A stretch of DNA of 64,000 nt from Spirochaetota bacterium (GTDB taxonomy: Bacteria; Spirochaetota; UBA4802; UBA5550). The notes beneath the pieces are model-generated. The model made no database searches. It saw only the letters and a list, made by a program, of their open reading frames with translations, and was not told where the DNA came from. The DNA is taken from contig CAXXHB010000003.1 in NCBI GenBank assembly GCA_963664815.2, forward strand, positions 384,001 to 448,000. The letters are read 5' to 3'. Below, in pieces: positions 14,290 through 31,948 of this stretch; positions within the stretch are counted from its first letter, which is position 1, and each line of letters starts with the position of its first letter. A program made the position numbers and the translations under genes.

Positions 14290-14883
14290 TTGCCACGAGA
14301 ATCGGAAAAAGATTGGGACGATCAGCTATTCCAGAAAGTTGACAGATATAAACTGGCCCAGAATCTTGAAAGCTGTCTTCAATGCGGGAAATGCACGGGT
14401 AACTGCCCGGTTGCTGCGCTTACTACTTCTTATAATCCAAGGGCAATTATCAATGATATACTATCAGGGAATATATCCAGACTGCTGGACAGCGAAGAAA
14501 TCTGGAGATGTTTCTGGTGTGCAAATTGTTACAGGGTATGTCCGGTTGATATCAGTTATCCAATGCTTATGATGCAGCTCAGATATTTGGCACTTGAAAA
14601 TGGATACGGATTAAAATATGTCGTCAATATAAATAAATTTACATACAAAGCTCTTGATGAAGGTCTGAGTTTTGTACCCGGTGCGAAAGGTATAGAACGT
14701 ATAAAAAAACTTCGCACTGCGATAAACGTTTCTCCATGGCCTGAAGTATCAGAAAGGGCTAAAAAGGAATACAGGGAAATATTTGAACAAACCGGAGCCG
14801 TGGCGTGGATGAAAAAGATTGAATCTCAGGAGGAGAAAGGACTGAGAATGAGCTTCGCAGAAGGGAGAATTACAAATGAGTGA
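14290..14883 (+). CDS. hdrC: Heterodisulfide reductase subunit C-like (HdrC1)
   Basis: CLQCGKCTGNCP and IWRCFWCANCYRVCP; TTG start after GGAGG. Confidence 0.88.
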   Translation: MPRESEKDWDDQLFQKVDRYKLAQNLESCLQCGKCTGNCPVAALTTSYNPRAIINDILSGNISRLLDSEEIWRCFWCANCYRVCPVDISYPMLMMQLRYLALENGYGLKYVVNINKFTYKALDEGLSFVPGAKGIERIKKLRTAINVSPWPEVSERAKKEYREIFEQTGAVAWMKKIESQEEKGLRMSFAEGRITNE

Positions 14884-15835
14884 TAATATTCAAGTCAGGG
14901 TAATCAGACCGGAAGAACGGATACCGGAGATACCGGAAAAAATATTTCTTTTCCGCAGCTGTACCGGAAGCATGGAATACCCTGGAACAGAGCTTGCTGT
15001 CAAAACAGTACTGTCAAAAATCGGTGTTGAGGTTATAATGGATCCGGACCAGACATGCTGTTCGGGATATATACTAACATGTTCCGGGTATACACCTGAA
15101 GCTTCACTGGCGGTAACTGCAAGGAACCTCGCTATGGTTGAACAGAAGTATAATCTGGATACATATGCCTTTTGTAATGGATGCTTCGGATATATGCGCG
15201 AGTTGTCTCACATAGTAAATCATGCACCCGGCATGAAAGAGCAGGTGAATGAGCTTATAGGAAAATGGGGATATAATTATAAAGGTAAAACTACAATTTA
15301 TCATGTGCAGGAATTGTATTATCTATTGATAGATAGAATCAAATCTCTTGTTGTACGGCCTCTTAACGGTTTGCGGGTGGCATCACATTACGGCTGCCAT
15401 TACCTTGCTCAGCAGTATGGAATTCTTGATGATGGTGATTTGCCGACATTTCATGAAAAGATATATGAAGTTCTTGGAGCAACACCGGTTTTTTACAAAG
15501 AGAGAAGAATGTGTTGTGGTTATGCAGTAGGACGGGGATTTACTCACAAAGAAAGTATGGTGCAGCCTCATCTGTCAAGGAAATTTGACAGCGCCAAAGC
15601 GGAAGGAGTACAGCTTATGACTACTGTCTGTCCGGGATGTAACACAGGGCTTGACAGGGAACAGTCTAATCTTGCGGCAAAGGGATTCGGCCCTTATAAT
15701 ATTCCTGTTATAGATCTGTCTCAACTGATCGGGCTCGCTATTGGTTTGCCGATAAAAAGCCTCGGATTTCAGGCAAACAGCGTATCTATGGATGGTGTAT
15801 TAAATTTTTTGGGATTAAATAAGGAGATCGATTGA
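14876..15835 (+). CDS. hdrB: Heterodisulfide reductase subunit B-like (HdrB1)
   Basis: Two CCG domains: FRSC..EYPG..DQTCCSG..CNGC and HYGCH..MCCGY..CPGC. Confidence 0.88.
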   Translation: MSDNIQVRVIRPEERIPEIPEKIFLFRSCTGSMEYPGTELAVKTVLSKIGVEVIMDPDQTCCSGYILTCSGYTPEASLAVTARNLAMVEQKYNLDTYAFCNGCFGYMRELSHIVNHAPGMKEQVNELIGKWGYNYKGKTTIYHVQELYYLLIDRIKSLVVRPLNGLRVASHYGCHYLAQQYGILDDGDLPTFHEKIYEVLGATPVFYKERRMCCGYAVGRGFTHKESMVQPHLSRKFDSAKAEGVQLMTTVCPGCNTGLDREQSNLAAKGFGPYNIPVIDLSQLIGLAIGLPIKSLGFQANSVSMDGVLNFLGLNKEID

Positions 15836-16878
15836 TGAAAGATAAAACTGTTCTTGTAATAGGCGGCGGAATAGCCGGGATGGAAGCCGCATTGCAGATT
15901 GGTAATTCCGGTTATAAAGTTATGCTTGTGGAAAAAGAAAACTCACTCGGGGGAACTCTCCTCAACCTGTACAGCAGTTTCCCTCGGTGGGAGGATCCTG
16001 CCAGACTTGTGCAGATGAAATATGATGATCTTAAAAATTGCGGGAATGTTCAGATAAAAACCGGAACAGTACCTGTTGCAAGCACAAAGCAGGGAAAGGG
16101 ATACATTGTAGAACTCAAGGGTACTGACGGGCAGAATGATAAAGTTCAGGCTGATGCAGTTGTAATTGCAACGGGTTTCGGGCTTTTTGATGTTTCTGCA
16201 TATGGCGAATATGGATATGGCGAATATGATAATGTTCTCAATACACTCGAGTTTGAAGCGAAACTGAAGGAGTGGATTGAAGATAAATCAGGAATGATAA
16301 AAAAACCCAAGACAATTGCTTTTATCAAATGTGTCGGCTCGCGGGACAGGTCAAAAGGGTATCCTTACTGTTCTAAAATTTGCTGCATGATAACTGCAAA
16401 ACAGGCTGGACTTGTTAAAGATATTCTCCCGGACGCAAAATGTTTCGTTTTTTACATGGATTACCGTGCAGCGGGAAAGGAATACGAGGAATTTGTGCGT
16501 ACTGTTATTGAAGAAAAGCATGTTCGTTATGTCAGAGGCAGACCAGCCAAGATTCTGCCTGAAAACGGCAGAATGACTTTAAGGGTTGAAGATACTCTTA
16601 TGGGTGTACCTGTTGAGGTAAGGGCTGATATGGTTGTACTGGCTGCTGCAATAGAACCGAGTGCGGGGACAAAGCAAATGGCGGAGATTTTCAGACTGGA
16701 GTCAGATCATTACGGATTTTTGGAGACGGTTTACGGAAGTCCTTCAAGAGCATCTGATATGATTTTTGTCGCGGGTTCGTGTACATATGCGGTAGAGACA
16801 AAAGGGGCCCTGCAGCAGGGAGCATCAGCAGCAGCTGAAGTATTGGCCATGTTCGGCCGTGAAAATACAGGAGAATGA
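15835..16878 (+). CDS. hdrA: Short HdrA-like flavoprotein (no ferredoxin insert or C-terminal ferredoxin domains)
   Basis: VIGGGIAGMEAA, CVGSRD, YCSKICCM..KQA, FYMDYRAAGK, GRPAKI; about 347 aa. Confidence 0.88.
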   Translation: MKDKTVLVIGGGIAGMEAALQIGNSGYKVMLVEKENSLGGTLLNLYSSFPRWEDPARLVQMKYDDLKNCGNVQIKTGTVPVASTKQGKGYIVELKGTDGQNDKVQADAVVIATGFGLFDVSAYGEYGYGEYDNVLNTLEFEAKLKEWIEDKSGMIKKPKTIAFIKCVGSRDRSKGYPYCSKICCMITAKQAGLVKDILPDAKCFVFYMDYRAAGKEYEEFVRTVIEEKHVRYVRGRPAKILPENGRMTLRVEDTLMGVPVEVRADMVVLAAAIEPSAGTKQMAEIFRLESDHYGFLETVYGSPSRASDMIFVAGSCTYAVETKGALQQGASAAAEVLAMFGRENTGE

Positions 16879-16879
16879 T

Positions 16880-17476
16880 ATGTCAGAAACAGTCCGGCAG
16901 ACATCAGAAGTTTTTTATCATTTAGTAAAACTGGATGAAACAGACAATAGACTGGCTGATGAAATAAAACAGAGCTGCGGTGTTGATATTGAGATGTGTC
17001 TGGAATGCGGTAAATGCACTGGCGGCTGTTCAAATACTCATATATTCGATTTTACACCACGGAAAATTATACAGCTTATAAAACTCGGACAGGAGGATAA
17101 ACTGTTGCATATGGATTCTCTGTGGACATGTGTTTCATGTCAACTCTGCTTTGACCGCTGCCCTTCAGGGATCAGCGTAGCCAGAATTATGGATTACCTT
17201 CGTGAAAAAAGTCATAAAAAAAATATTAAACCCTCACGTGAAAACGTTATGCTGTTCCATGAAATAGTATTGAGGTCAGTTCAGCATTCAGGAAGGCTTC
17301 ATGAACTTGGTTCCGTTATGCAGTTCAATATAAAAAGCGGAATGTTATTCAAGGATACGGAGCTTGGCATTAAAATGTTTTTTAAAGGCAAATTGAGTCT
17401 TTTTCATTTTAAAATCAAAGGCGTAAAACAGGTAAGACGCTTATTTAAATATTTTTATGCCGGGGGTGAAAAATAA
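16880..17476 (+). CDS. hdrC: Heterodisulfide reductase subunit C-like (HdrC2)
   Basis: CLECGKCTGGCS and LWTCVSCQLCFDRCP; ATG 16880 after AGGAG. Confidence 0.88.
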   Translation: MSETVRQTSEVFYHLVKLDETDNRLADEIKQSCGVDIEMCLECGKCTGGCSNTHIFDFTPRKIIQLIKLGQEDKLLHMDSLWTCVSCQLCFDRCPSGISVARIMDYLREKSHKKNIKPSRENVMLFHEIVLRSVQHSGRLHELGSVMQFNIKSGMLFKDTELGIKMFFKGKLSLFHFKIKGVKQVRRLFKYFYAGGEK

Positions 17477-18351
17477 TGATAAATGTAGCTTATTATCCCG
17501 GTTGTTCTTTAAAAGGAATGGCCAGCGAATATGATAAATCATCCCGCATTGTGTGCAGCCACCTGGGAATAAAACTTCATGAAATTAAAAACTGGAATTG
17601 CTGCGGGGCCACATCGGCTCACAGTTTAAATCATAACCTTGATATAAGTCTTTCAGCCCGTAATCTTGATATTGTAAAAAGCATGAACCTTGACCATGTG
17701 ACAAGTCCATGTCCTGGATGTTTTAGCCGCCTTAAAGGTTCATCTTTTGAAATGAGGAATAACACGGCAGTCAGAAATACAGTCGAGAAATTCCTGGGGA
17801 GATCCGCACCTGTTGAGCCCGAGGTCAGCAGTATGGTTCAGCTTATTGTTGAGAATAACAGTATGAAAGAGATTGCAAGTCATGTGGTAAAACCTCTTAA
17901 CGGGCTGAAAGCAGCCGTGTACTACGGGTGCCTTCTTACAAGGCCAAAAAAGATTGTGGGATTTGATGATCCGGAAAAGCCGATGTCTCTGGATTTTATA
18001 ATGCAGTCTGTTGGAGCTGAGACCGTCACCTGGGGCTGTAAAGCCGAATGCTGCGGGGGCGGATACTCTGTTTCGGAAACAGATATCGTTATGGATCTTT
18101 CATCCAGAATTTTGGAGTCAGCCCATCAGTCAGGTGCTGAGGCTATTGTTGTTGCATGTCCGCTTTGTCAGGCTAACCTGGATACAAGGCAGAAAGCTAT
18201 CAGTGAAAAGCAGGGGATTAAGTATAATTTACCTGTTATCTACTTTACTCAGCTTATGGGACTTGCTTACGGAGATAAGTCTTCGTCACTGGGGTTCAGG
18301 CGTCTGTTTATCAGTCCATTCAAACTTTTAAAATCAAAGGGGCTGATATAA
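17476..18351 (+). CDS. hdrB: Heterodisulfide reductase subunit B (HdrB2)
   Basis: YYPGCS, WNCCGA, PCPGC, YYGCL, ECCGG, ACPLCQANLD, PVIYFTQLMGLA. Confidence 0.9.
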   Translation: MINVAYYPGCSLKGMASEYDKSSRIVCSHLGIKLHEIKNWNCCGATSAHSLNHNLDISLSARNLDIVKSMNLDHVTSPCPGCFSRLKGSSFEMRNNTAVRNTVEKFLGRSAPVEPEVSSMVQLIVENNSMKEIASHVVKPLNGLKAAVYYGCLLTRPKKIVGFDDPEKPMSLDFIMQSVGAETVTWGCKAECCGGGYSVSETDIVMDLSSRILESAHQSGAEAIVVACPLCQANLDTRQKAISEKQGIKYNLPVIYFTQLMGLAYGDKSSSLGFRRLFISPFKLLKSKGLI

Positions 18352-18527: not shown

Positions 18528-19514
18528 GTGAAAAACAAGCTTATTTCAATACAAGAGGCAGTAAAAAAATATACATGGGACGGTATGACTTTTGCCCATG
18601 GCGGTGCTTTACCTGTAGGTTCCGACTGTATAGCATTCTTTCGTGAAATGGTTCGCAATGGAGTAAAGGATATAAACTGCATTTCAAACTGTAATACACA
18701 GGGATCAAATCTGCTTGCCGGTGCCGGTCTCATGAAACGTATGGAGGTCGGGTTTTCCGGTCTTGAGGTATATGGTTTTGCCAACGGTCTTAAAAGGGTT
18801 GTGGAAAGCGGCAAGACAATTCTTGAAGACTATTCCAATGGAGCAATTCCACTCAGACTCATGGGTGGTGCTTTAGGCTGGCCATTTGTTCCCACATTTA
18901 TATGCACAGGTTCCGGTCAGCAATCCTGTTCTGCTGATGAACCGGATGTTTTTCCAAATAAAAAAAAGATACCCGAGATTAAAGATCCTTTTACCGGAGT
19001 TACAATGGGAGCTATGAAAAGTCTCACGCCTGATCTTGCAGTGATCCATGTAACTATGTCTGATATATACGGGAATGCGATTATGCTTGGTACGGAATGG
19101 AGTCGTTTTGAACTTTCCCGTGCATCTAAAAAGGTTATACTGCAGACAGATTATATTGTTGATACTGACTGTATAAAACAGTTTCCGAACCTTGTGAGGA
19201 TCCCTGATCTTGTTGTTGACGGAGTTGTCTATTGGCCCATGGGTGTATGGCCGGCATGTTCAACAGGTGTTTATGACAGTGATGAAGAACATATGGGGCT
19301 GATGAATAAACTGCTTAAAACAGAGGATGGCACAAAAGAATACATAGATAAATATGTCAGGAGTTACACCACATATGAGGAATACCTGGAAGTTATAGGC
19401 AAGGATAAGATCAAAACTCTCAAAGATACAGCAACCGCATTTTTAATGGATCCTTATAAAAAATGGATAGTAAGCGATTCTGAGATCAAGTCTTCGATGG
19501 GGGGAGGTAAATAA
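18528..19514 (+). CDS. CoA-transferase subunit A (glutaconate CoA-transferase GctA-like), copy 1
   Basis: KLISIQEAV, EDYSNG..LRLMGGALGWPF, DPFTG, PDLAVIHV..SD.YGN. Confidence 0.85.
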   Translation: MKNKLISIQEAVKKYTWDGMTFAHGGALPVGSDCIAFFREMVRNGVKDINCISNCNTQGSNLLAGAGLMKRMEVGFSGLEVYGFANGLKRVVESGKTILEDYSNGAIPLRLMGGALGWPFVPTFICTGSGQQSCSADEPDVFPNKKKIPEIKDPFTGVTMGAMKSLTPDLAVIHVTMSDIYGNAIMLGTEWSRFELSRASKKVILQTDYIVDTDCIKQFPNLVRIPDLVVDGVVYWPMGVWPACSTGVYDSDEEHMGLMNKLLKTEDGTKEYIDKYVRSYTTYEEYLEVIGKDKIKTLKDTATAFLMDPYKKWIVSDSEIKSSMGGGK

Positions 19515-20308
19515 TGGAATATTCTAAAAATGAAGGGATGGCGATTGCCACAGGGAGAGAATTTAATGATGGTGAGCTTGCAATATTCGGCGTGGGTCTG
19601 AGTATGCTTGCAGGATTTTTCGCACAGAAGAATCATGCTCCGAATCTTATAGCATTCACTGAGGGTGGAGTATACGGGTCTACTCCTGTCGGAGGACTGC
19701 CGTGGGGTATTGAGGATAACCGCATATCCGCGAATGCAACAAGCTTTACAAATGCCATTGATGCTCTTGGTATGCTCGTGGCATCGGGCAGGGTCGACAA
19801 TGCTGTAATAGGGGCTGCACAGATTGATAAATTCGGAAACGTTAATACTACAGGTATATGGGACGAAGGAACACAGCCGTGGAAGGTTGGAAGATATACT
19901 CTTCCAAAAGTAAGACTTAACGGAAGCGGCGGCGCTAACGAAATCGCTGTTGGTGCCAAAAAATATTTAATAATGGCAGCTCATGAGAAAAAAAGATTTG
20001 CCGACAGAGTGGATTATATTTCCTCACCCGGCTACATTGATGGAGGAAATGCACGCCAGAGATACGGTTTTCCTGGTGGCGGCCCTTCAGCTATCATCAC
20101 AAATCTTGGTATACTGAGGCCTGATCCGGTAACAAAGGAATTTTATCTGGATGCGTATTTCAGCCATTCGTCTGTTGAAGAAATAATAGAGAATACAGGC
20201 TGGGTGTTAAAGATATCTCCGAATGTCAAGATGGTTCCTGAACCAACTGAGAAAGAACTTGAGAATCTGAGAGCGGTTGATGCGACAGGATCGCTACGGA
20301 AAAAATAA
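19514..20308 (+). CDS. CoA-transferase subunit B (GctB-like), copy 1, catalytic Glu retained
   Basis: FGVGL, FTEGG (Glu50), GAAQIDKFGNVN, RLNGSGGAN, VDYISSPG, ENTGW. Confidence 0.87.
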   Translation: MEYSKNEGMAIATGREFNDGELAIFGVGLSMLAGFFAQKNHAPNLIAFTEGGVYGSTPVGGLPWGIEDNRISANATSFTNAIDALGMLVASGRVDNAVIGAAQIDKFGNVNTTGIWDEGTQPWKVGRYTLPKVRLNGSGGANEIAVGAKKYLIMAAHEKKRFADRVDYISSPGYIDGGNARQRYGFPGGGPSAIITNLGILRPDPVTKEFYLDAYFSHSSVEEIIENTGWVLKISPNVKMVPEPTEKELENLRAVDATGSLRKK

Positions 20309-20316
20309 TATATTGG

Positions 20317-20360
20317 CAGGCAGCATAATAACCATGTGAAACATGATTATTTTCTGCCTG
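20317..20360 (+). terminator. Stem-loop between the two CoA-transferase pairs (terminator or mRNA stabiliser)
   Basis: CAGGCAG...ATAACCATGT-gaa-ACATGATTAT...CTGCCTG followed by TTT. Confidence 0.45.
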
Positions 20361-20459
20361 TTTAAAATAAGGTAAAGAATTTAATTCAGTATTTATATTC
20401 AGTCACTTGGAACCAGTAGTAGAAAGAGTAAAAATAAATTTAATCAAAGGAGGTTGAAA

Positions 20460-21275
20460 ATGCACGAAAAGTTGATGTCATTATCAAAGGCTGCCGATCT
20501 CATCAGAAATGATATGCTGCTCAGCTTCGGTGGTAATGGGATGCATCGTAATCCTGTTGCTTTTGCATTAGCCCTTACAAAGAGACCTTTAAAAAGTCTC
20601 AGGATGTGCGGGGCTGCACCTGGAATTGCGACTGATATCATGATGCCACAGTCTTGTGAAGCATATTTCGGTTTTTTTGGTCTGGAAAATGAGGCCGGCC
20701 TGGCACCAGGTATGAGAAAAGCGATGGAGGGGGCAAATCCTACAGTCAAGGCATATGAGGGTTCCTGAACGGCGATGATTGCTGCTCTCCGTGCGGGAGC
20801 CTATGGAATACCCTTTATGCCAGTCGGAGGCATGTGGGGAAGCGACTTAGTTGCATTACGCCCAGATTTTTATCAAGTCATGAAAAGCCCGTTTGACGGG
20901 AAAGAAGTAGTATGTGTTAAAGCTCTTGTGCCTGATTATGCCGTAATTCATGTACAGGAAGCGGATATCTACGGGAATGCCCGTATACTCGGCCCGAGTT
21001 ATCAGGATGCGCTTCTTGCAAGAGCAGCAAAAAAAGTAATAATAACAGCAGAGCGAATAGTGGGTACATACCGGATGCAGGAAGAACCTAAGCTTACGGC
21101 AATTCCTCATATGCTGGTTGAAGCTGTTGTTGAAGTACCCGGCGGTGCTAAACCCGGAATTTGTTATCCTGATTATCTCACTGCTGACTGGGATGCTCAT
21201 AAGGCTTATCAGAAAGCTGTGAAGGAAGGTACGGTATCGGACTGGGTGGCTAAACTTTTGGAAGGGAGGTCATAA
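20460..21275 (+). CDS. CoA-transferase subunit A-like protein, copy 2; putative selenoprotein (in-frame UGA at codon 103)
   Basis: ORFs 20454-20768 and 20775-21275 share a frame and are separated only by TGA-ACG-GCG; joined 271-aa product (..AYEGS-U-TAMIAALRAGAYGIPF..) is collinear with copy 1; AAGGAGGT RBS before ATG 20460; SECIS-like hairpin downstream. Confidence 0.8.
20784..20800 (+). promoter_or_regulatory. Putative bacterial SECIS element
   Basis: GCTC(T)CC-GTGC-GGGAGC: 6-bp stem with bulged U and a loop starting GU, loop G 22 nt after the UGA. Confidence 0.7.
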
Positions 21276-21276
21276 A

Positions 21277-22014
21277 ATGGAATATGGAAAACCTGAAATG
21301 ATGGCAGTAGCCCTCATACGTGAAATACAGGAAAATGACGTTGTGTTCCATGGTCTTGCTTCATCTACTCCAATGGTGGCCATGAAAGCGGCCAAGGCAC
21401 TTGGCAAAGATTATACATATGTTACTCTCAGTGACGGTCTGGACCATGACTGGAAAAGACCCCCATATTTCGCATCCACACTTTCTGAAAATACTTATAC
21501 TGGTTCCGTGGCGACTTTCGGACTGGATGAAATATTCGATCTTTATATGTCCGGTAAAGGAGATATAGCTTTCCTTTCATGCCTTCAGATGGATAAAACA
21601 GGAAGGATCGCGATGTCATACGTTGGCGGAGAATATGATCATCCGAAACTCAGGGGGCCGGGAGGAGCAGGCAGCGCCTCGCTTACGCCTATGACTCCCA
21701 GAACAATAATCTGGAAAACTCAGCATGACAAGAGAACTTTTATCGAGCACGTAGATTTTGCAACAACATCACCGGCTGTTGATAAAATGTTCACTCTGGT
21801 TACGCCTCTTTGTATTTTCAGGAAGCCGGTTGGAGAAAAACTTCTTAAACTGGATTGTATTTTCCCGTACACAACACTGGAAGAAGTTAAGGAAAATACC
21901 GGATGGGTAATTGATGAAACAAAAGTACCTGTAATGGATCCCCCTACAGAGGCTGAATTGTCAGCAATCAAGAGAGTGGATCCTAACAATATTCTTGCTT
22001 ACGAGTTTAAATAG
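21277..22014 (+). CDS. CoA-transferase subunit B-like protein, copy 2, lacking the canonical catalytic Glu
   Basis: VFHGLAS, QMDKTGRI, KLRGPGGAGS, HDKRTFIEHVDF, ENTGW; 'TLSDG' where copy 1 has 'TEGG'. Confidence 0.83.
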   Translation: MEYGKPEMMAVALIREIQENDVVFHGLASSTPMVAMKAAKALGKDYTYVTLSDGLDHDWKRPPYFASTLSENTYTGSVATFGLDEIFDLYMSGKGDIAFLSCLQMDKTGRIAMSYVGGEYDHPKLRGPGGAGSASLTPMTPRTIIWKTQHDKRTFIEHVDFATTSPAVDKMFTLVTPLCIFRKPVGEKLLKLDCIFPYTTLEEVKENTGWVIDETKVPVMDPPTEAELSAIKRVDPNNILAYEFK

Positions 22015-22143: not shown

Positions 22144-23805
22144 ATGGTGATTTTTATGAGTAAAAAAGTACTTATAGTCGGAGGTGTTGCAGGTGGAGCC
22201 AGCACTGCTGCGAGACTCAGGAGACTTGACGAAAATGCTGAGATTATTATGTTTGAACGTGGTGAATTTATTTCATTTGCCAACTGCGGGCTTCCATATT
22301 ATGTAGGGGGTGCTATTGTAAACAGGAAAAGCCTTTTCGTACAGACTCCTCAGTCAATGAAAAAACGATTTAACCTGGACGTTCGTATACACAGCGAAGT
22401 CGTAAAAATTTTTCCTTCTGAAAAGAAGGTTGAAGTCCGCAGCATTCAGAAAGGGGAGAATTACTTTGAGACCTATGATTACCTTGTACTTTCTCCGGGA
22501 GCGCAGCCCGTTTTACCGGACATAAAAGGACTGAATCTTCCAAATGTATTCAGTGTCCGCAATGTTCCTGACAGTGATGCAATAAAGCAGTTTATCGATG
22601 CTCATAAGCCTGCAACAGCTGTGATAATAGGCGGAGGTTTTATAGGTATGGAAATGGCAGATGTGCTTCATCAGTGCGGAGTAAAGACAACTGTTGTTGA
22701 AGCGGCAGACCGGATTATGAATCTCTGGCTTGACGGGGAAATGGCAACAACAGTACAGCAGTATATAAATAAGAAAGGAATAGAGCTTGTTTTAAATGAT
22801 AAAGTTGCGGTTCTCGAGGGTTCTTCTGGAGTTGAGAGGGCAGTTCTTGAAAGCGGCAGAGAAATTTCTGCGGAGATTGTAATTCTCGGTACAGGAGTAA
22901 AACCTGAGGTATGGCTTGCAGAAGATGCCGGACTTGTCATTGGCTCCACGGGCGGGATACACGTGGATGAATATCTGCGGACCTCAAATGAATTTATTTA
23001 TGCAGTTGGCGATGCCATTGAAGTAAAAAATATGATTACGGATAAATATGAACTGATGTTTCTTGCAGGTCCTGCCAACAGGCAGGGGAGGCTTGCGGCA
23101 GATAATATTGCAGGAAGACCATCTAAATATTCCGGTTCACAGGGAACAGCAATAATAAAAATAATAGATATGACTGTGGCTGTAACCGGTGCGAACGGGA
23201 AAAGTCTCAGTAATTCAGGAATACCTTTTCTCGCGTGTCATATACATCCCGCTTCTCATGCGGCATACTATCCCGGCGGAACGCAGATGTCGATCAAACT
23301 TTTTTTCACCCCTGATGAAGGAAAAATCCTCGGGGCACAGATTGTGGGATTTGACGGAGTTGACAAGCGCATTGATGTTTTTGCAACTGCTGTCAGGGCT
23401 GGAATGACAGTGTTTGATCTCACTGAGCTTGAGCTGGCCTATGCACCCCCATTTTCATCGGCAAAGGATCCAGTGAATATGGCCGGGTATGTGGCCTCAA
23501 ACATATTGCTTAAGGATATTGAAGTGGTTTACTGGAAAGATGTTCCGGCACTTGTTTCAGGAGGTGCATTTCTCCTTGACGTTCGCATGCCGTCAGAAGT
23601 AGAGGCTGGGGCGGTTAATGGTTCGGTTAATATACCTGTTGATGATCTGAGAAACCGCATTGAAGAGATACCTAAAGACAAGGTGATCCTGGTTTACTGC
23701 CAGGTGGGTCTGCGTAGCTATATCTCTAATCGTATATTAAAGCAGAAAGGATTTATTGTAAAGAATATCAGCGGAGGATACAAGTCCTTCCAATCACAAA
23801 AGTAA
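22144..23805 (+). CDS. cdr: CoA-disulfide/persulfide reductase with C-terminal rhodanese domain
   Basis: GGVAGGASTAARLRR, redox Cys SFANCGLPY, GGGFIG, LAYAPPFS, rhodanese YCQVGLRS. Confidence 0.9.
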   Translation: MVIFMSKKVLIVGGVAGGASTAARLRRLDENAEIIMFERGEFISFANCGLPYYVGGAIVNRKSLFVQTPQSMKKRFNLDVRIHSEVVKIFPSEKKVEVRSIQKGENYFETYDYLVLSPGAQPVLPDIKGLNLPNVFSVRNVPDSDAIKQFIDAHKPATAVIIGGGFIGMEMADVLHQCGVKTTVVEAADRIMNLWLDGEMATTVQQYINKKGIELVLNDKVAVLEGSSGVERAVLESGREISAEIVILGTGVKPEVWLAEDAGLVIGSTGGIHVDEYLRTSNEFIYAVGDAIEVKNMITDKYELMFLAGPANRQGRLAADNIAGRPSKYSGSQGTAIIKIIDMTVAVTGANGKSLSNSGIPFLACHIHPASHAAYYPGGTQMSIKLFFTPDEGKILGAQIVGFDGVDKRIDVFATAVRAGMTVFDLTELELAYAPPFSSAKDPVNMAGYVASNILLKDIEVVYWKDVPALVSGGAFLLDVRMPSEVEAGAVNGSVNIPVDDLRNRIEEIPKDKVILVYCQVGLRSYISNRILKQKGFIVKNISGGYKSFQSQK

Positions 23806-23918: not shown

Positions 23919-25433
23919 ATGAAAAAAATTATTATTTCCACGATTTTCCTTTCTTTAATATTGATTTCACTTCCTAATACAATTTATTTGTACGCAAGTA
24001 ATACACAGGCTGCAGTAAAAATTCAGGATAATGTTAATGTTGAAGATAATGTAAAGAATGGAACTGTTGGTACGAGTATTTCTGAACATAGTAATCCTCA
24101 TATCAATGCTAAAAATTTAAGTCTTTTATGGATAATTCCATTTATTGGTATACTCCTGTCAATTGCCCTTTTACCACTTTTTACGCCGGACTTCTGGCAC
24201 CACCATTATGGCAAAGTGTCGATCTTCTGGTGGCTAACATTTTTTGTGGCGTTTTCTGTTAAATTTGGAATAGGTATCGGTTCCTACTACCTTCTGGAAG
24301 TATATCTGATGGAGTTTATTCCATTTATAACTCTGCTCCTTGCCCTTTTTACTGTTGCCGGAGGCATTCAGCTTAAAGGGGAGCTTGCAGGAACGCCAAA
24401 AGTAAACACTGTCATGATCCTTATAGGAGGTATACTTGCAAGTTTTATGGGTACAACCGGAGCAGCAATGGTAATGATACGACCTGTTCTGAAGGCAAAC
24501 GAATGGAGAGCAAACAGAGCGCATATAGTTGTTTTTGTAATTTTCGTTGTTGCCAATGTAGGGGGTGGACTTACCCCTCTCGGTGATCCTCCTCTATTTC
24601 TTGGTTTCCTTAAAGGAGTTGATTTTTTCTGGACAGTGAAGCATATGTTTCCACTTGTTGCTTTTACAATCGGGATACTCCTCGTAATTTTCTTTATAAT
24701 GGATACATATTATTACAGTAAAGAAAAAAATAAACCGGTAAAAGATGCTGCCGGGGAAAAGTTAAAACTCATTGGTATACCCAATATGCTTTTAATTCCA
24801 TTAATAATTGGAGCTGTCATAATATCAAGCATCGACATGGGAACTGCCTTCACTGTTCATTTCGTTGCAGTGCAATTATCATCAATCTTTCAGGTTATGC
24901 TTCTTCTTGTCATAACTATCATTTCGCTCAGGGTATCAAACCCGGATATAAGAGAAGCGAACGGATTCAGCTGGGAGCCGATCAGGGAAGTCTCAAAACT
25001 TTTCGCAACAATTTTCATGACTATGGTTACACCGATTGCTATGCTCAGAGCCGGAGTTGACGGACCTATGGGGATGGTTGTAAGAGGAGTTGCCGATAGC
25101 AGCGGTAATTTTATCAATTCTCATTTTTTCTGGGCGGCAGGTGCCCTTTCAAGCTTTCTTGATAATGCCCCAACATATCTTGTTTTCTTTAATACTGCAG
25201 GGGGCAGCCCTGTTGATCTGATGGGTGTTCATGCCGGAACGCTTATTGCAATAAGTGCCGGTGCAGTTTTCATGGGGGCAAATACATATATCGGCAATGC
25301 CCCTAATTTTATGACAAAATCAATCGCGGAAGAGTCTGGTGTGGCAATGCCGAGTTTTTTCGGGTATATGTTTAAATATTCAATACCGATCCTTATTCCG
25401 GTATTTATTCTGGTAACATATATATTTTTTTAA
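23919..25433 (+). CDS. Ion-transporter superfamily membrane protein (putative Na+/H+ antiporter or carboxylate transporter)
   Basis: FWHHHYGK, GTTGAAM, ANVGGGLTPLGDPPLFLG, SFLDNAPTY, TYIGNAPNF. Confidence 0.85.
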   Translation: MKKIIISTIFLSLILISLPNTIYLYASNTQAAVKIQDNVNVEDNVKNGTVGTSISEHSNPHINAKNLSLLWIIPFIGILLSIALLPLFTPDFWHHHYGKVSIFWWLTFFVAFSVKFGIGIGSYYLLEVYLMEFIPFITLLLALFTVAGGIQLKGELAGTPKVNTVMILIGGILASFMGTTGAAMVMIRPVLKANEWRANRAHIVVFVIFVVANVGGGLTPLGDPPLFLGFLKGVDFFWTVKHMFPLVAFTIGILLVIFFIMDTYYYSKEKNKPVKDAAGEKLKLIGIPNMLLIPLIIGAVIISSIDMGTAFTVHFVAVQLSSIFQVMLLLVITIISLRVSNPDIREANGFSWEPIREVSKLFATIFMTMVTPIAMLRAGVDGPMGMVVRGVADSSGNFINSHFFWAAGALSSFLDNAPTYLVFFNTAGGSPVDLMGVHAGTLIAISAGAVFMGANTYIGNAPNFMTKSIAEESGVAMPSFFGYMFKYSIPILIPVFILVTYIFF

Positions 25434-26095: not shown

Positions 26096-27289
26096 TTATT
26101 CCCCCCTTTCTACAATTATAGTTTCGTTGCTCTGATAATAACCGCCGTTATCAGAGATAAGCATGAATTCAGGAAGCTTTGTGCCCGGTATTACCCCTAA
26201 CTGACGATCTCCGCAGCGCTTAGACATCTGCATCACCGCCTCAGCCATCGGAGTAAGGCCCATATAATAACCTTCAGAGAGCAGACCGCCTCCAGTGTTT
26301 ACTGGGAATGCGCCGCCGGGCCCGATATTTTCCACTGTCATGAAGTCGCGGGATTTATTCTTGTCGAAGAACCCATAGTCACCCAGAGTTGCCTCAACTG
26401 TGTATGTGTAGCAATCGTATATCTGGGCTGCACCTATGTCTTTTGGCTCTAAGCCGGCCATCTGGAAAGCTTCACGTCCGGCTACAGCGGCACTGCTTGC
26501 GGGATCACCCGGTGTAAGCTGCCAGCCTTTGGAGGTGTCATTGGCAGCACCGAAACTGCGGATCTTTACGGGCGGATTCTTAAGGTGTTTAGCCCGTTCT
26601 GTGGTGGTGATGATAACAGCCCGGCCGCCGTCAGTTGATGCCGTGGCATCTAAGGCACGGAATGGCCATGAAAGAAACGGTGTAGCCAGGTAGTCATCCT
26701 TTGTCAAAGGCTTGCTGTACTGAATGGCCTTGGGATTCAGATTAGCCCATTTGCGGTGTGCAATAGCTATATCTCCCCATACATCGGGCCCTGTCCCATG
26801 TTCATGCATGGCACGACTGGCGAAAATTGCATAATTTGTGAAAGCAGAAATATTACCGTAAGCGCCGTACTCATCATAGGGCTTGTTGCTTAACAGGTCA
26901 ATTTCGTCTGTCCATGTACGGCGGCCGGTTCTGCCACTCTCGGCAAATACAATCAGTACATATTTACATGTACCGTTTTCAAGAACACCAATCGCTTTAT
27001 TGATGTTGGTGCGGTAGCAGTAAGCTTCCTGGCTTAAGAATTTCGGGCGTATGCCCAGACTGGAGGTTATTACGTTGGCTGTATGGTGAAAAGCGTCTCC
27101 AGACAAAATTGGAAAATCACGGTAAAGAATCAGACCATCTATATCATCCTTCTTTAATCCCGCATCATTAATGGCGTTCATGGTCGCTTCGAGATAAAAA
27201 CTCGCTGCGGAACGTCCAGAAACTACTCCCTGCGGTGTATAACCGACACCGGCAAAGGCATATTTGTTTCTTAATCCTGTACGATCCAT
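26096..27289 (-). CDS. Thiolase-fold protein, SCP2/Ltp2 (aldolase)-like
   Basis: GVGYT, DAGL..DIDG, A.LNPKA, STDGGRA, AQIYDCYT, VNTGGGLLSEGY, QMSKRCGDRQ; lacks GHP.GA. Confidence 0.82.
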   Translation of the reverse strand: MDRTGLRNKYAFAGVGYTPQGVVSGRSAASFYLEATMNAINDAGLKKDDIDGLILYRDFPILSGDAFHHTANVITSSLGIRPKFLSQEAYCYRTNINKAIGVLENGTCKYVLIVFAESGRTGRRTWTDEIDLLSNKPYDEYGAYGNISAFTNYAIFASRAMHEHGTGPDVWGDIAIAHRKWANLNPKAIQYSKPLTKDDYLATPFLSWPFRALDATASTDGGRAVIITTTERAKHLKNPPVKIRSFGAANDTSKGWQLTPGDPASSAAVAGREAFQMAGLEPKDIGAAQIYDCYTYTVEATLGDYGFFDKNKSRDFMTVENIGPGGAFPVNTGGGLLSEGYYMGLTPMAEAVMQMSKRCGDRQLGVIPGTKLPEFMLISDNGGYYQSNETIIVERGE

Positions 27290-29488: not shown

Positions 29489-31948
29489 TTATTCTATCCA
29501 ATCCACCTGAGGGAATTCCCTCTCGACAGGTTTGTCTATCTGCACTGCAGGATACCCTATAACAATTGATGTTGCCACAAGATCGTATGGCCATTTAATA
29601 CCCAGTTTTTTCCTGAGTTTTTTGCTCATATTTACCGGTTCTGTCCCGAATCCGGCATAACAGGTTCCAAGACCAAGAGAATGTGCCGCGAGTACCATGT
29701 TCTGGCAGCACATGCCGGTGCTGAATACAGGTGTTGATATACCCATGTGATGCACAAGGACATAGATTACTGTTGTCGCACCGAAAAATATATCCATTTG
29801 CTTTTCACCGAACTGTGGTGTAAGTAGCGCCTGTATAGCCACCATCGGCCGCTGGTCAATACCGTCCGGACGCAGAAAAGCCGCGCTGTTTTTCACCAGT
29901 TTCCGAAACGGACCTCTGCCCTGGTAAATGCGGGTAACCATTCCGAGAGTCCTTGTGCAATCTCTGCTCAATTCATCAAGGAGTGCACGATCCCTTATAA
30001 CAATAAATTTCCATGGTTGTGAATTTCCTGCCGAAGGTGAAAAGCGCCCTGCCTCAAGTATACGGTGGACTAACTCCCGGGGGACTGCTTCATCTGTAAA
30101 GACACGGTTGGATCTTCGGCGGTAAATAATACGCTCTGTAGAGGTAATTTTATTTTCAATAACTGCGAAAGCTGGAGGATTCTCCTGCATGAATGGGTTT
30201 GGATATCCCTTTCCTTTTTCAGGTATACCAAGTGCGGTATTTGACCAGCGGCCTTTTTCAATCCTGTAGTAATTCGGAAATGTAAGAGCATCTTGTGGAC
30301 ATATTGCCTCGCAGTTGTGGCATGCAAGGCACACTTTTCCGAAATATTCAGATCTGCTGCCGGTAAATTCAGATTTATAATTGCCGCAGGAGATGCATCT
30401 TCCAGATTCGCTTGATACCTGGTCGGGCGTAAGACTTCCGTCAACAGGGTTGCTTATGCTTTTAAGGCGCTCAACAAAGCCCGGTCTTACTGCACAATTT
30501 CGTTCAGTATTTTTATAGCCGTATAGAGGTACATTACGGAAAGATATTTCCTTTTTTAAAGGAACTGAATATTTTTTTCCGGAAAGATAAGCGTTTATGG
30601 AAAACGCGGCATTTTTACCGGCACCTATTGCGGCTGTTACTGTCGCGGACCCGTTTAAAACATCACCACCTGCGAATACTCCGGCATGTTTAGTCATCCA
30701 TGTGTCATCTGCAATAAGACGGCCATTTTCAAAAATCTCTTCAAAGCCGCTGGGTTCCACCTCCTGACCTATGGCATAAACAGCCAGATCTGCCTCCATG
30801 TCGAATTCTCCACCTTCAGCCGGCAAAGGGCGGCTTCTGCCGGAATCATCCTCTTCATATAAACGCATCCGCGTGCATTTTATTTTTAATGGGCCGTTTC
30901 CGGTATGGGTGATGTTAAGCGGCGCCGAGAGAAATTCAATTTTTACACCTTCCTCAAGTGCATCGCTGATATCTTTATCGAATGCAGGCATCTCTTTTCT
31001 TGAGCGCCGGTAAAGGATTGTAGCTTCAGCACCGCACCTTCTTGCCGTTCGCGCTACATCTATGGCGGTGTTTCCGCCTCCGATTACTATTACATTCCGC
31101 GCATCCGGCATCTCCTCTCCTTCACGGATATTCCTTAAAAAATCGAGTCCGGACAGAACCCGGCCGAATATTGGGAAATCAGTTTTTTTACTATTTGCGG
31201 TTCCGATAGCCAAATAGACTGCATTATAGTCTGACATGAGCGTTTTTAATGATATATCACTTCCTGCTTTAACCCCGAGTTTCAGTGTAACACCCATGTC
31301 TGTTATACGCTGATATTCGCCGTCAATCAGATCAGAAGAGAGCCGAAATGCAGGTATAGCATATCTGAGCATTCCCCCGGGTTTCAGATCAGCCTCATAA
31401 ACAGTAACATCGTGGCCCATCCGTGTAAGCTGATAAGCGCAGGACATGCCAGATGGCCCGGAGCCCACAATGGCAATTTGTTTTCCGCTTTTTTTCTCAG
31501 GTTTAATGAAGGATTTTTTTTCTTTGATTCCCCACTCTCCGATGAAACGTTCAATCTCATTAATATTAACAGATTCATCAAGGTTTTGACGGTTGCATCC
31601 CCCCTCGCAGGGGTGAGGACATACCATTCCTGTAATGGCCGGGAACGGGTTAGCATCCGTGATTATATCCCACACCTCTTCATATGTTCCTCCATCAGCC
31701 AGCACCTTCATATACTTTCTCACATCCACCCCTGATGGACAATTATGCTGGCAGGCCGGCTCCTGGTTGCCGGAGTATGCCCGGGATACAAGTGAAAGTG
31801 TCTGGCACGGGCATTGCTGAACACAAAGCCCGCATCCGATACATTTTTCATCATCAAGAATAATACTGAAAGGTGTTTTGACTACCGGCGGATCGCTTAA
31901 TATTCTGAATTTCTGAGTAAAACTTCCGTTCATAAAGTTATTCTCCAT
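29489..31948 (-). CDS. Fusion: 4Fe-4S ferredoxin / GltD-NfnB-like FAD-NAD(P) oxidoreductase / nitroreductase
   Basis: CIGCGLCVQQCP; PACQHNCP..VCPHPCEGGC, GSGPSG, GGGNTAID; RCISCG; CLACHNCEAICP; RRSNR..APSAGNSQPW..LAAHSLGLGTC. Confidence 0.85.
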   Translation of the reverse strand: MENNFMNGSFTQKFRILSDPPVVKTPFSIILDDEKCIGCGLCVQQCPCQTLSLVSRAYSGNQEPACQHNCPSGVDVRKYMKVLADGGTYEEVWDIITDANPFPAITGMVCPHPCEGGCNRQNLDESVNINEIERFIGEWGIKEKKSFIKPEKKSGKQIAIVGSGPSGMSCAYQLTRMGHDVTVYEADLKPGGMLRYAIPAFRLSSDLIDGEYQRITDMGVTLKLGVKAGSDISLKTLMSDYNAVYLAIGTANSKKTDFPIFGRVLSGLDFLRNIREGEEMPDARNVIVIGGGNTAIDVARTARRCGAEATILYRRSRKEMPAFDKDISDALEEGVKIEFLSAPLNITHTGNGPLKIKCTRMRLYEEDDSGRSRPLPAEGGEFDMEADLAVYAIGQEVEPSGFEEIFENGRLIADDTWMTKHAGVFAGGDVLNGSATVTAAIGAGKNAAFSINAYLSGKKYSVPLKKEISFRNVPLYGYKNTERNCAVRPGFVERLKSISNPVDGSLTPDQVSSESGRCISCGNYKSEFTGSRSEYFGKVCLACHNCEAICPQDALTFPNYYRIEKGRWSNTALGIPEKGKGYPNPFMQENPPAFAVIENKITSTERIIYRRRSNRVFTDEAVPRELVHRILEAGRFSPSAGNSQPWKFIVIRDRALLDELSRDCTRTLGMVTRIYQGRGPFRKLVKNSAAFLRPDGIDQRPMVAIQALLTPQFGEKQMDIFFGATTVIYVLVHHMGISTPVFSTGMCCQNMVLAAHSLGLGTCYAGFGTEPVNMSKKLRKKLGIKWPYDLVATSIVIGYPAVQIDKPVEREFPQVDWIE

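Follow-up and report, generated by a model that had tools for sequence, protein, structure and literature searches.

A CoA-transferase-like gene at positions 20460 to 21275 of the forward strand of a 64,000-nucleotide stretch of Spirochaetota DNA (contig CAXXHB010000003.1, positions 384,001 to 448,000; the whole stretch is called the window below) almost certainly encodes a selenoprotein. On the evidence of sequence comparison, the locus would be translated as one gene, with SelB reading the UGA at 20766-20768 as selenocysteine (Sec) by way of a 6-bp stem-loop, to give a 271-amino-acid product with Sec at residue 103. Alignments and a structure model make it likely that this product pairs, as alpha subunit, with the product of 21277-22014 in a heterodimer of the CoA-transferase fold, and that the pair belongs to a Cys/Sec subfamily distinct from the ping-pong CoA-transferases. 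By the same evidence it is equally likely that this subfamily is large and uncharacterised, with Cys or Sec always present at one column of the alpha subunit and no catalytic Glu in the beta subunit. Taken as a whole, this account is very likely the best explanation of the locus.

Gene structure and the in-frame TGA

The frame opens with an ATG at 20460, which is preceded by a Shine-Dalgarno sequence (GGAGG, 20449-20453) 6 nucleotides (nt) 5' of the start, and extends over 271 codons to a TAA at 21273-21275. Its sole interruption is the TGA at 20766-20768. Translation with table 11 thus leaves two open reading frame (ORF) pieces, 20454/20460-20768 and 20775-21275, and a direct reading of the DNA agrees with the original prediction, made from the letters of the window, that these are fragments of a single frame split by one TGA. 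Joined across it, the protein reads KAYEGS-U-TAMIAALRAGAYGIPF; as had been claimed, this join aligns without gaps to the paralogue that begins at 18528, in which the corresponding segment is LEDYS-N-GAIPLRLMGGALGWPF. A scan for promoters and terminators returned nothing above the shuffled expectation, and no terminator lies 3' of the TGA on the + strand.

The assumption of default annotation would be that such a gene is a pseudogene, broken by a strain-specific nonsense mutation or by a sequencing error. The TGA is not an assembly slip, because independent contigs from two further samples, belonging to two studies, carry the same TGA with 0 differences over the site (X3 20300-21091 and X4 20690-20849). 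This settles the possibility of sequencing error that the original prediction had wanted checked. Nor is there decay downstream of the TGA: the remaining frame is intact.

Selenocysteine and cysteine alternate at one column

Relatives of the window protein were collected in two scans. The first, of one genome per species, recovered 40 loci with 54-84% protein identity to the window protein, from Syntrophomonadaceae, Desulfosporosinus, Pelotomaculum, Syntrophobacteraceae and Syntrophaceae. The codon at column 103 is TGA in 38 of the 39 loci that cover it, in each as the only in-frame stop, and TGT in the remaining one (L064). From the second scan, of metagenomes, 80 of at least 589 matching stretches were kept. 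The 80 loci of the metagenome set that cover the column, among them a contig of a related genome (L071), divide into 24 with TGA and 56 with TGT or TGC.

Database proteins tell the same story from the other side. Among the 120 best listed matches, 79 are pieces of 150-174 amino acids that start past column 103, and the other 41 are full length. These pieces indicate that gene callers split the homologues at column 103 just as they split the window gene. An alignment of the full-length matches (40 of the 41, P0106 being omitted) has Cys at column 103 in every sequence, and the column is one of 21 that are invariant. The original prediction had held that Trp, Arg, Gly or a variable residue at this position would speak against Sec; the homologues have Cys exclusively, and the TGA is shared by Bacillota and by deltaproteobacterial syntrophs.

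A tree of 119 rows (the window and 118 loci, with L068 and L123 omitted because the column is missing from them and L091 because its coverage is short) contains 62 rows with Sec at column 103, 57 with Cys and none with any other residue. Sec and Cys must have been exchanged at least 6 times on this tree, and the well-supported (starred) branches force 4 of these switches. Ten TGA loci lie in branches that are merely 34-42% identical to the window protein: L071, from a genome of the same order (G045:C210:3029-3880), and the metagenomic loci L113, L114, L122, L142, L146-L149 and L151. The distant branches have G+C-rich hairpins of their own 14-16 nt past the TGA, which points to several independent switches between Sec and Cys.

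Against this record the pseudogene explanation can be weighed. The same TGA stands in 62 further loci from many assemblies, with one stop in each, and close relatives have diverged to 54-85% protein identity with their active-site columns conserved. One metagenome copy, L091, does contain another stop in frame (ALRA*ASG, seven codons into the hairpin region), which reflects either decay of the copy or an error in the reads. Apart from the default of annotation, this copy is what the pseudogene reading has in its favour, and the probability of that reading is practically negligible.

A second conventional explanation is that the TGA terminates, so that the locus produces two polypeptides of about 102 and 166 amino acids that together form a split alpha subunit. 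There is an ATG at 20775, after the TGA, from which the second polypeptide might start, and public gene calls do list the pieces of 150-174 amino acids. This restart codon (position +3) is ATG in just 16 of 39 sequences and otherwise ATH or CAR. In relatives without the break, its place is always taken by a Cys codon, and the column is otherwise invariant. In the structure model described below, the break would fall at a strand-helix junction inside one compact domain, and a covarying hairpin occupies the expected place of a selenocysteine insertion sequence (SECIS). Termination followed by reassembly of a split subunit is therefore highly improbable.

The distribution of the gene among organisms is uneven. 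Seven genomes of the same genus (G001-G007) contain no close copy, the best match having an E value of about 1e-26 and the listed matches being 31-33% identical, and the 19 best paralogues in related genomes of the same family or order (L012-L030) have Asn at the column. The closest copies (about 80% identical) come from metagenome-assembled genomes of Syntrophomonadaceae type, and in the tree the deltaproteobacterial copies nest within that clade. From this pattern the cluster around the Sec-type alpha gene looks horizontally mobile. Its G+C content is even throughout, so there is no compositional sign of a recent transfer.

A conserved stem-loop downstream of the UGA

A SECIS-type hairpin is predicted at 20784-20800 of the + strand, within the palindrome GCTCTCCGTGCGGGAGC. 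Its stem pairs 20784-20789 with 20795-20800 and includes one U·G pair, its loop (20790-20794) is CGUGC, and the spacer between UGA and stem is 15 nt. Given 39 distinct TGA-bearing sequences, RNAalifold proposed unaided the same unbulged 6-bp stem (alignment columns 49-54 with 60-65), which is paired in 234 of 234 cells. Two pairs covary: 51-63 is UA in 33 sequences and CG in 6, and 54-60 is CG in 33, UA in 4, GU in 1 and UG in 1. None of 500 shuffles matched the observed pairing or covariation score, and controls slid along the alignment were 30-69% paired. The combination of TGA and hairpin is far beyond chance.

The coding function of the region complicates this evidence. The peptide A-L-R-A-G-A by itself fixes 4 of the 6 stem pairs, so that the structural evidence comes down to the two free pairs and to constraint on synonymous positions; in addition, no Rfam model matched the hairpin when 20400-21300 was searched at permissive thresholds. 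Both points weigh against the proposed SECIS. The two covarying pairs are exactly the two that the peptide leaves free, and they join third codon positions. Third-position entropy at codons +6 to +10 is 0.17-0.72 bits, compared with 1.5-1.9 bits at flanking four-fold sites.

Comparison with the Cys forms adds to this picture. Because G+C content confounds folding energy, whose whole-segment mean is -17.9 for Sec and Cys forms alike, pairs were counted instead in the register of the stem. The 56 Cys-codon loci form between 1 and 5 of the 6 pairs, and none has the full stem. The ten distant Sec-type loci have other palindromes, starting 14-16 nt past the UGA (such as a stem of 7-8 bp with the loop GGC), and these appear in the minimum-energy fold in 7 of the 10.

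The stem-loop anticipated by the original prediction, and its conservation in other TGA-bearing genomes, are borne out by the 39 fully paired sequences, but the geometry then drawn is not. That drawing had a bulged U, and with it a resemblance to the SECIS of Escherichia coli fdhF. Redrawn with the bulge, the relatives are paired in 97.4% of cells, with 5 unpaired at pair 55-60 and 1 at pair 54-61, that is, 6 unpaired cells compared with 0 for the plain stem. Since the bulged pairing is the poorer, the fdhF-like geometry is not the favoured one; covariation and RNAalifold both prefer a plain stem with a U·G pair, although a bulge is possible in the window's own sequence. The distance of 22 nt from UGA to loop G holds within the earlier drawing. 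What the element shares with the fdhF SECIS is a short GC-rich stem-loop that closely follows the UGA and has G and U in its loop; it differs in the absence of a favoured bulged U, in its CGUGC loop and in its 15-nt spacer.

Selenocysteine machinery and the genetic code

All four components named in the original prediction as a test of Sec decoding are present in the genome by profile and tRNA matches. selA scores 367 bits, and a SelB winged-helix domain (47 bits) lies in a 608-residue frame beside it; a tRNA-Sec (70 bits) is found within a few kilobases of selA and selB. selD scores 370 bits and has one in-frame TGA of its own, in the context ...TGAG-U-AAKIGP. This gene (locus L152, G000 C3:2287335-2288261, minus strand) also has a hairpin that starts about 9 nt past its TGA, and together the TGA and hairpin suggest that the selenophosphate synthetase of the organism is itself a selenoprotein.

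Cys is evidently acceptable at column 103, and it may be asked whether near-cognate read-through or a changed genetic code instead places Cys, Trp or Gly at the UGA. TGA commonly serves as a normal stop, ending 11 of 38 long ORFs in the window, among them three of the Hdr-like genes of the cluster, and 621 of 2043 genome-wide; TGA is therefore not reassigned in this genome. The Sec machinery is complete, and the element at SECIS distance is selected only in the TGA-bearing forms. Recoding to a residue other than Sec is thus extremely improbable.

With the column, the hairpin and the machinery all examined, the earlier proposal of a 271-amino-acid selenoprotein with Sec103, which annotation divides in two, has come through each test.

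Fold of the alpha subunit and the position of Sec103

Both subunits match the CoA-transferase domain PF01144, the alpha subunit with 61.6 bits and the beta subunit with 38.2 bits. The AlphaFold model of the alpha subunit has a pLDDT of 91.7, and in it residue 103 opens a helix (103-115) right after a strand (97-100). The best structural matches are IpdA (6con_A), AibA (5mzw) and GctA (1poi), ahead of subunits of the AtoD/SCOT type. NCBIfam release 20 contains no specific model for either subunit, and ESM Atlas look-alikes of a 70%-identical Cys homologue bear generic CoA-transferase names only.

Profile alignment places Gln at the Sec103 column in GctA (YSQD), Gly in AibA, and Glu (6co6) or Ala (6coj) in IpdA. 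The 6co6 and 6coj chains differ at exactly this column, and the title of 6coj is 'IpdAB E105A COCHEA-CoA complex'. By this alignment Sec103 is assigned to a known active-site column of the CoA-transferase fold. In class I alpha subunits the column adjacent to the thioester holds Gln or Asn, as Gln in GctA and Asn in the paralogue at 18528 (A1 below), where the present protein has Sec.

The nearest solved relatives show how varied the chemistry on this fold can be. IpdAB of Mycobacterium tuberculosis and Rhodococcus jostii (6con, 6co6, 6co9, 6coj) is a ring-cleaving hydrolase, and in the structure comparison IpdA ranks first for the alpha model (6con_A, E 2.8e-23, TM 0.87; profile E values 7e-35 to 2e-36). 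Its Glu105, which is Ala in 6coj, aligns with Sec103. A PNAS study of 2018 reportedly found that the beta subunit of IpdAB lacks the transferase Glu and that alpha Glu105 acts as a base; the support used here for the role of Glu105 consists of the 'E105A' of the PDB title and the chain sequences only. IpdAB also differs from the present pair: identity is about 26%, IpdA has Glu and not Sec or Cys, its setting is aerobic steroid catabolism, and it has neither Hdr-like or CoA-disulfide reductase neighbours nor a UGA. AibA/AibB of Myxococcus xanthus (5mzw-5n03) is a decarboxylase, and AibA is the second-best fold match (TM 0.88). AibAB is a non-transferase of the GctAB-like branch, as is proposed here for the Sec-type pair, though AibA has Gly at the Sec column, an engineered or variant residue of AibB is Cys, and selenium is absent. 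GctAB of Acidaminococcus fermentans (1poi) has the same two-subunit layout, and GctA is the best profile match of the alpha subunit (E 4.6e-51); the differences are the Gln of GctA in place of Sec and the catalytic Glu of GctB, for which the partner described next has no counterpart.

A beta partner without the catalytic glutamate

The gene at 21277-22014 (+ strand) encodes a CoA-transferase-like beta subunit, B2, identified by profile and alignment, and a B2 gene lies directly 3' of the Sec gene in related loci. In class I CoA-transferases the glutamyl-CoA thioester forms on a Glu of the beta subunit, within an (S/T/V)E(N/S/G)G motif. The column of this Glu was fixed by aligning TEGG of the canonical beta subunit B1 (19514-20308) with VESG of GctB (1poi_B) and SENG of CtfB (9csc_B). 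In B2 of the window the residue is Asp53 by BLASTP and MAFFT, and the motif is missing. A readable partner is available at 107 loci, and one of these has Glu at the column; the others have Gly (59), Asp (43), Asn (3) or Ala (1).

Because the catalytic beta Glu is lost, the pair of alpha and B2 could not run the standard transferase reaction. As in the known non-transferases of this fold, the beta Glu is gone and a key residue is found elsewhere in the same pocket. Among solved structures B2 is closest to AibB (E 1e-17). One point weighs on the other side: the HMMER register to AibB moves the Glu column by up to two residues relative to BLASTP and MAFFT. In neither register is there a Glu within three residues of the B2 column. 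B2 also has a Cys179 (PLCIF) that is invariant in 21 of 21 partners and Gly in B1 and AibB; judged from this conservation it is a candidate resolving thiol.

It might still be argued that the protein is a true family I CoA-transferase alpha subunit, in which Sec does no more than adjust the active site and CoA is transferred by way of an acidic beta residue (Asp53 in the window). PF01144 is found in both subunits, B2 keeps the glycine-rich loop GPGGAG, Asp occupies the Glu column in 42 loci of the close Sec clade, and the surroundings, with a transporter and CoA-transferase genes, look canonical. Yet the Asp is not conserved, the 59 loci with Gly including 10 of Sec type, and for both subunits the non-transferases IpdAB and AibAB are among the closest relatives of known structure. 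The title of PDB entry 9cq2 reads 'CtfAB E46D active site mutant hydrolase'. In glutaconate CoA-transferase, too, a change of this Glu to Asp is said to give a hydrolase. A true transferase is accordingly improbable. Of the original designation as a CoA-transferase, the fold is upheld by PF01144 and the enzyme class is not, given a beta subunit without Glu and Sec in place of Gln or Asn. The pair of alpha and B2 is probably a CoA-transferase-fold enzyme with some other chemistry, as are IpdAB and AibAB; since the catalytic residue differs and identity is only about 26%, it is not expected to catalyse the reaction of either.

Gene neighbourhood

The Sec gene belongs to a run of genes on the + strand. 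Five Hdr-like genes, with overlapping stops and starts indicative of translational coupling, occupy 14290-18351: by profile matches these are HdrC-like (14290-14883), HdrB-like (14876-15835), a short HdrA-like protein of 348 amino acids (15832-16878), a second HdrC-like (16859-17476) and an HdrB/SdhE-like protein (17476-18351). The order HdrC-B-A-C-B is that of the sHdr clusters of sulfur oxidisers, here in the context of a strict anaerobe and next to genes of the CoA-transferase fold. A canonical pair of GctAB type follows, with A1 (18528-19514) having Asn at the Sec column and B1 the catalytic Glu in TEGG, as the alignments have it. Downstream of B2 are a CoA-disulfide reductase (CoADR) fused to a rhodanese (22144-23805), which scores 500 bits with TIGR03385 (cut-off 578.8) and 396 bits with NF007123 (cut-off 458), and a transporter of CitMHS_2 type by domain match (23919-25433).

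Parts of this arrangement recur. Of the 27 genome loci for which all 4 kb of upstream sequence are available, 19 have an HdrB-like gene there in the same orientation, with or without A1/B1 in between. A CoADR homologue is found downstream of B2 in 8 of the 40 genome loci; within the close clade, 31 loci have 1 kb or more of sequence on the downstream side, and 8 of these carry the homologue there. In the distant Cys clade (below 50% identity) CoADR is directly upstream in 15 of 60 loci overall, and in 12 of the 36 whose flank measures 1.3 kb or more; the two of these reductases that were scanned score 580 and 567 bits, above the NF007123 cut-off. The link between the alpha/beta pair and CoADR thus recurs in far-apart branches with differing gene orders. 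MFS transporters stand at a place comparable to that of the window transporter in L034 and L047. Loci without Hdr-like genes have mixed neighbours (DUF1646, AMP-binding, aminotransferase, thiolase-like), from which no pathway emerges.

Two further genes of the window lie on the minus strand. One, at 26096-27289, is of the Thiolase_C_1 family, which is also found in L047 (1958-3151) between the MFS transporter and the Sec gene. The other, at 29489-31948, encodes an 819-residue fusion of a 4Fe-4S region, a pyridine nucleotide-disulfide oxidoreductase and a C-terminal nitroreductase.

A possible role for the selenocysteine

The neighbouring genes suggest CoA-linked thiol or selenol redox chemistry for the alpha/B2 pair, a proposal that is tentative and stands somewhat short of an even chance. 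By alignment and fold, Sec103 probably caps the N-terminus of its helix at the reaction centre. Since the GPGGAG loop is kept, the pocket may still bind CoA or acyl-CoA, and the selenolate (or the thiolate of the Cys forms) would be the nucleophile that attacks the CoA sulfur or a CoA-bound substrate, with turnover passing through an Se-S intermediate. The adjoining CoADR might resolve this intermediate in the far-apart branches of the family, and the upstream Hdr-like complex might do so in the syntroph clade, while the canonical pair A1/B1 and the transporter would supply a CoA-activated acid.

Several observations weigh against redox chemistry. The motif around Sec103 is E-G-S-U-T, and there is no UxxC or CxxU. 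Hdr-like genes are absent upstream in 8 of the 27 loci with full flank, and about two thirds of loci have no CoADR in the available flank, so that most are without a reductase there. HdrB and other CCG-domain proteins also serve non-thiol redox enzymes, and within the Hdr-like set the best NCBIfam match of the product of 17476-18351 is SdhE, below the cut-off. The association with CCG-domain proteins and the scarcity of reductases would be compatible with the main alternative among non-transferase functions, a non-redox role in which Sec or Cys serves as acyl-accepting nucleophile, or as base, when a C-C or C-S bond of an acyl-CoA is cleaved; this would bring the pair nearer to IpdAB.

A more specific version of the redox proposal can be drawn by analogy, and it is doubtful. 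The pair would be a missing enzyme of CoA thiol redox metabolism, with CoA-SH held in the pocket and Sec103 cycling through a CoA-S-Se-enzyme intermediate. It might then be a CoA-dependent peroxidase, or a reductase of CoA heterodisulfides or persulfides, and CoADR would recycle the Sec enzyme as glutathione reductase does with glutathione peroxidase.

Relation to known selenoproteins and implications

An inventory published in 2026 and presented as the most comprehensive (PMC13188914) gives 119 prokaryotic selenoprotein families or subfamilies in its Table 1, and that table has no CoA-transferase, PF01144 or glutaconate entry. The literature on Sec-containing CoA-transferases yielded unrelated papers only, including PMC7176365, and supplementary selenoproteome lists might contain one. 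The original prediction likewise knew of no characterised Sec-containing family I CoA-transferase subunit. Like the known Sec families, for example the Sec-type CoA-disulfide reductase, HdrA and glutathione peroxidase, the family interchanges Sec with Cys, has its SECIS directly downstream, occurs in selenoprotein-rich anaerobes and is associated with thiol/disulfide enzymes; unlike them it has neither a thioredoxin fold nor the paired Sec and Cys motif. On comparative evidence this appears to be a genuine, previously unlisted selenoprotein family on the CoA-transferase fold, and there is hardly any doubt that its UGA is decoded as Sec.

The family is widespread in syntrophic oxidisers of fatty acids and propionate (Syntrophomonadaceae, Pelotomaculum, Syntrophobacteraceae, Syntrophaceae) and in soil metagenomes, and its members are routinely fragmented by gene callers. 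A review of 2024 (PMC10950700) counts a CoA S-transferase, CoAredoxins and a CoA-dependent peroxidase among the CoA redox-control enzymes that are still unidentified, and the repeated pairing with CoADR bears on these. Should the pair indeed be an enzyme of CoA thiol redox metabolism, the ferredoxin-linked, Hdr-like recycling of syntrophs would be a bacterial, CoA-specific counterpart of the CoM-S-S-CoB of methanogens. Whatever the reaction, the Sec/Cys column defines a large branch of the fold that would be unable to use the textbook glutamyl-CoA mechanism, and the selenium at column 103 would mark the catalytic residue, so that the chemistry of this branch becomes directly testable.

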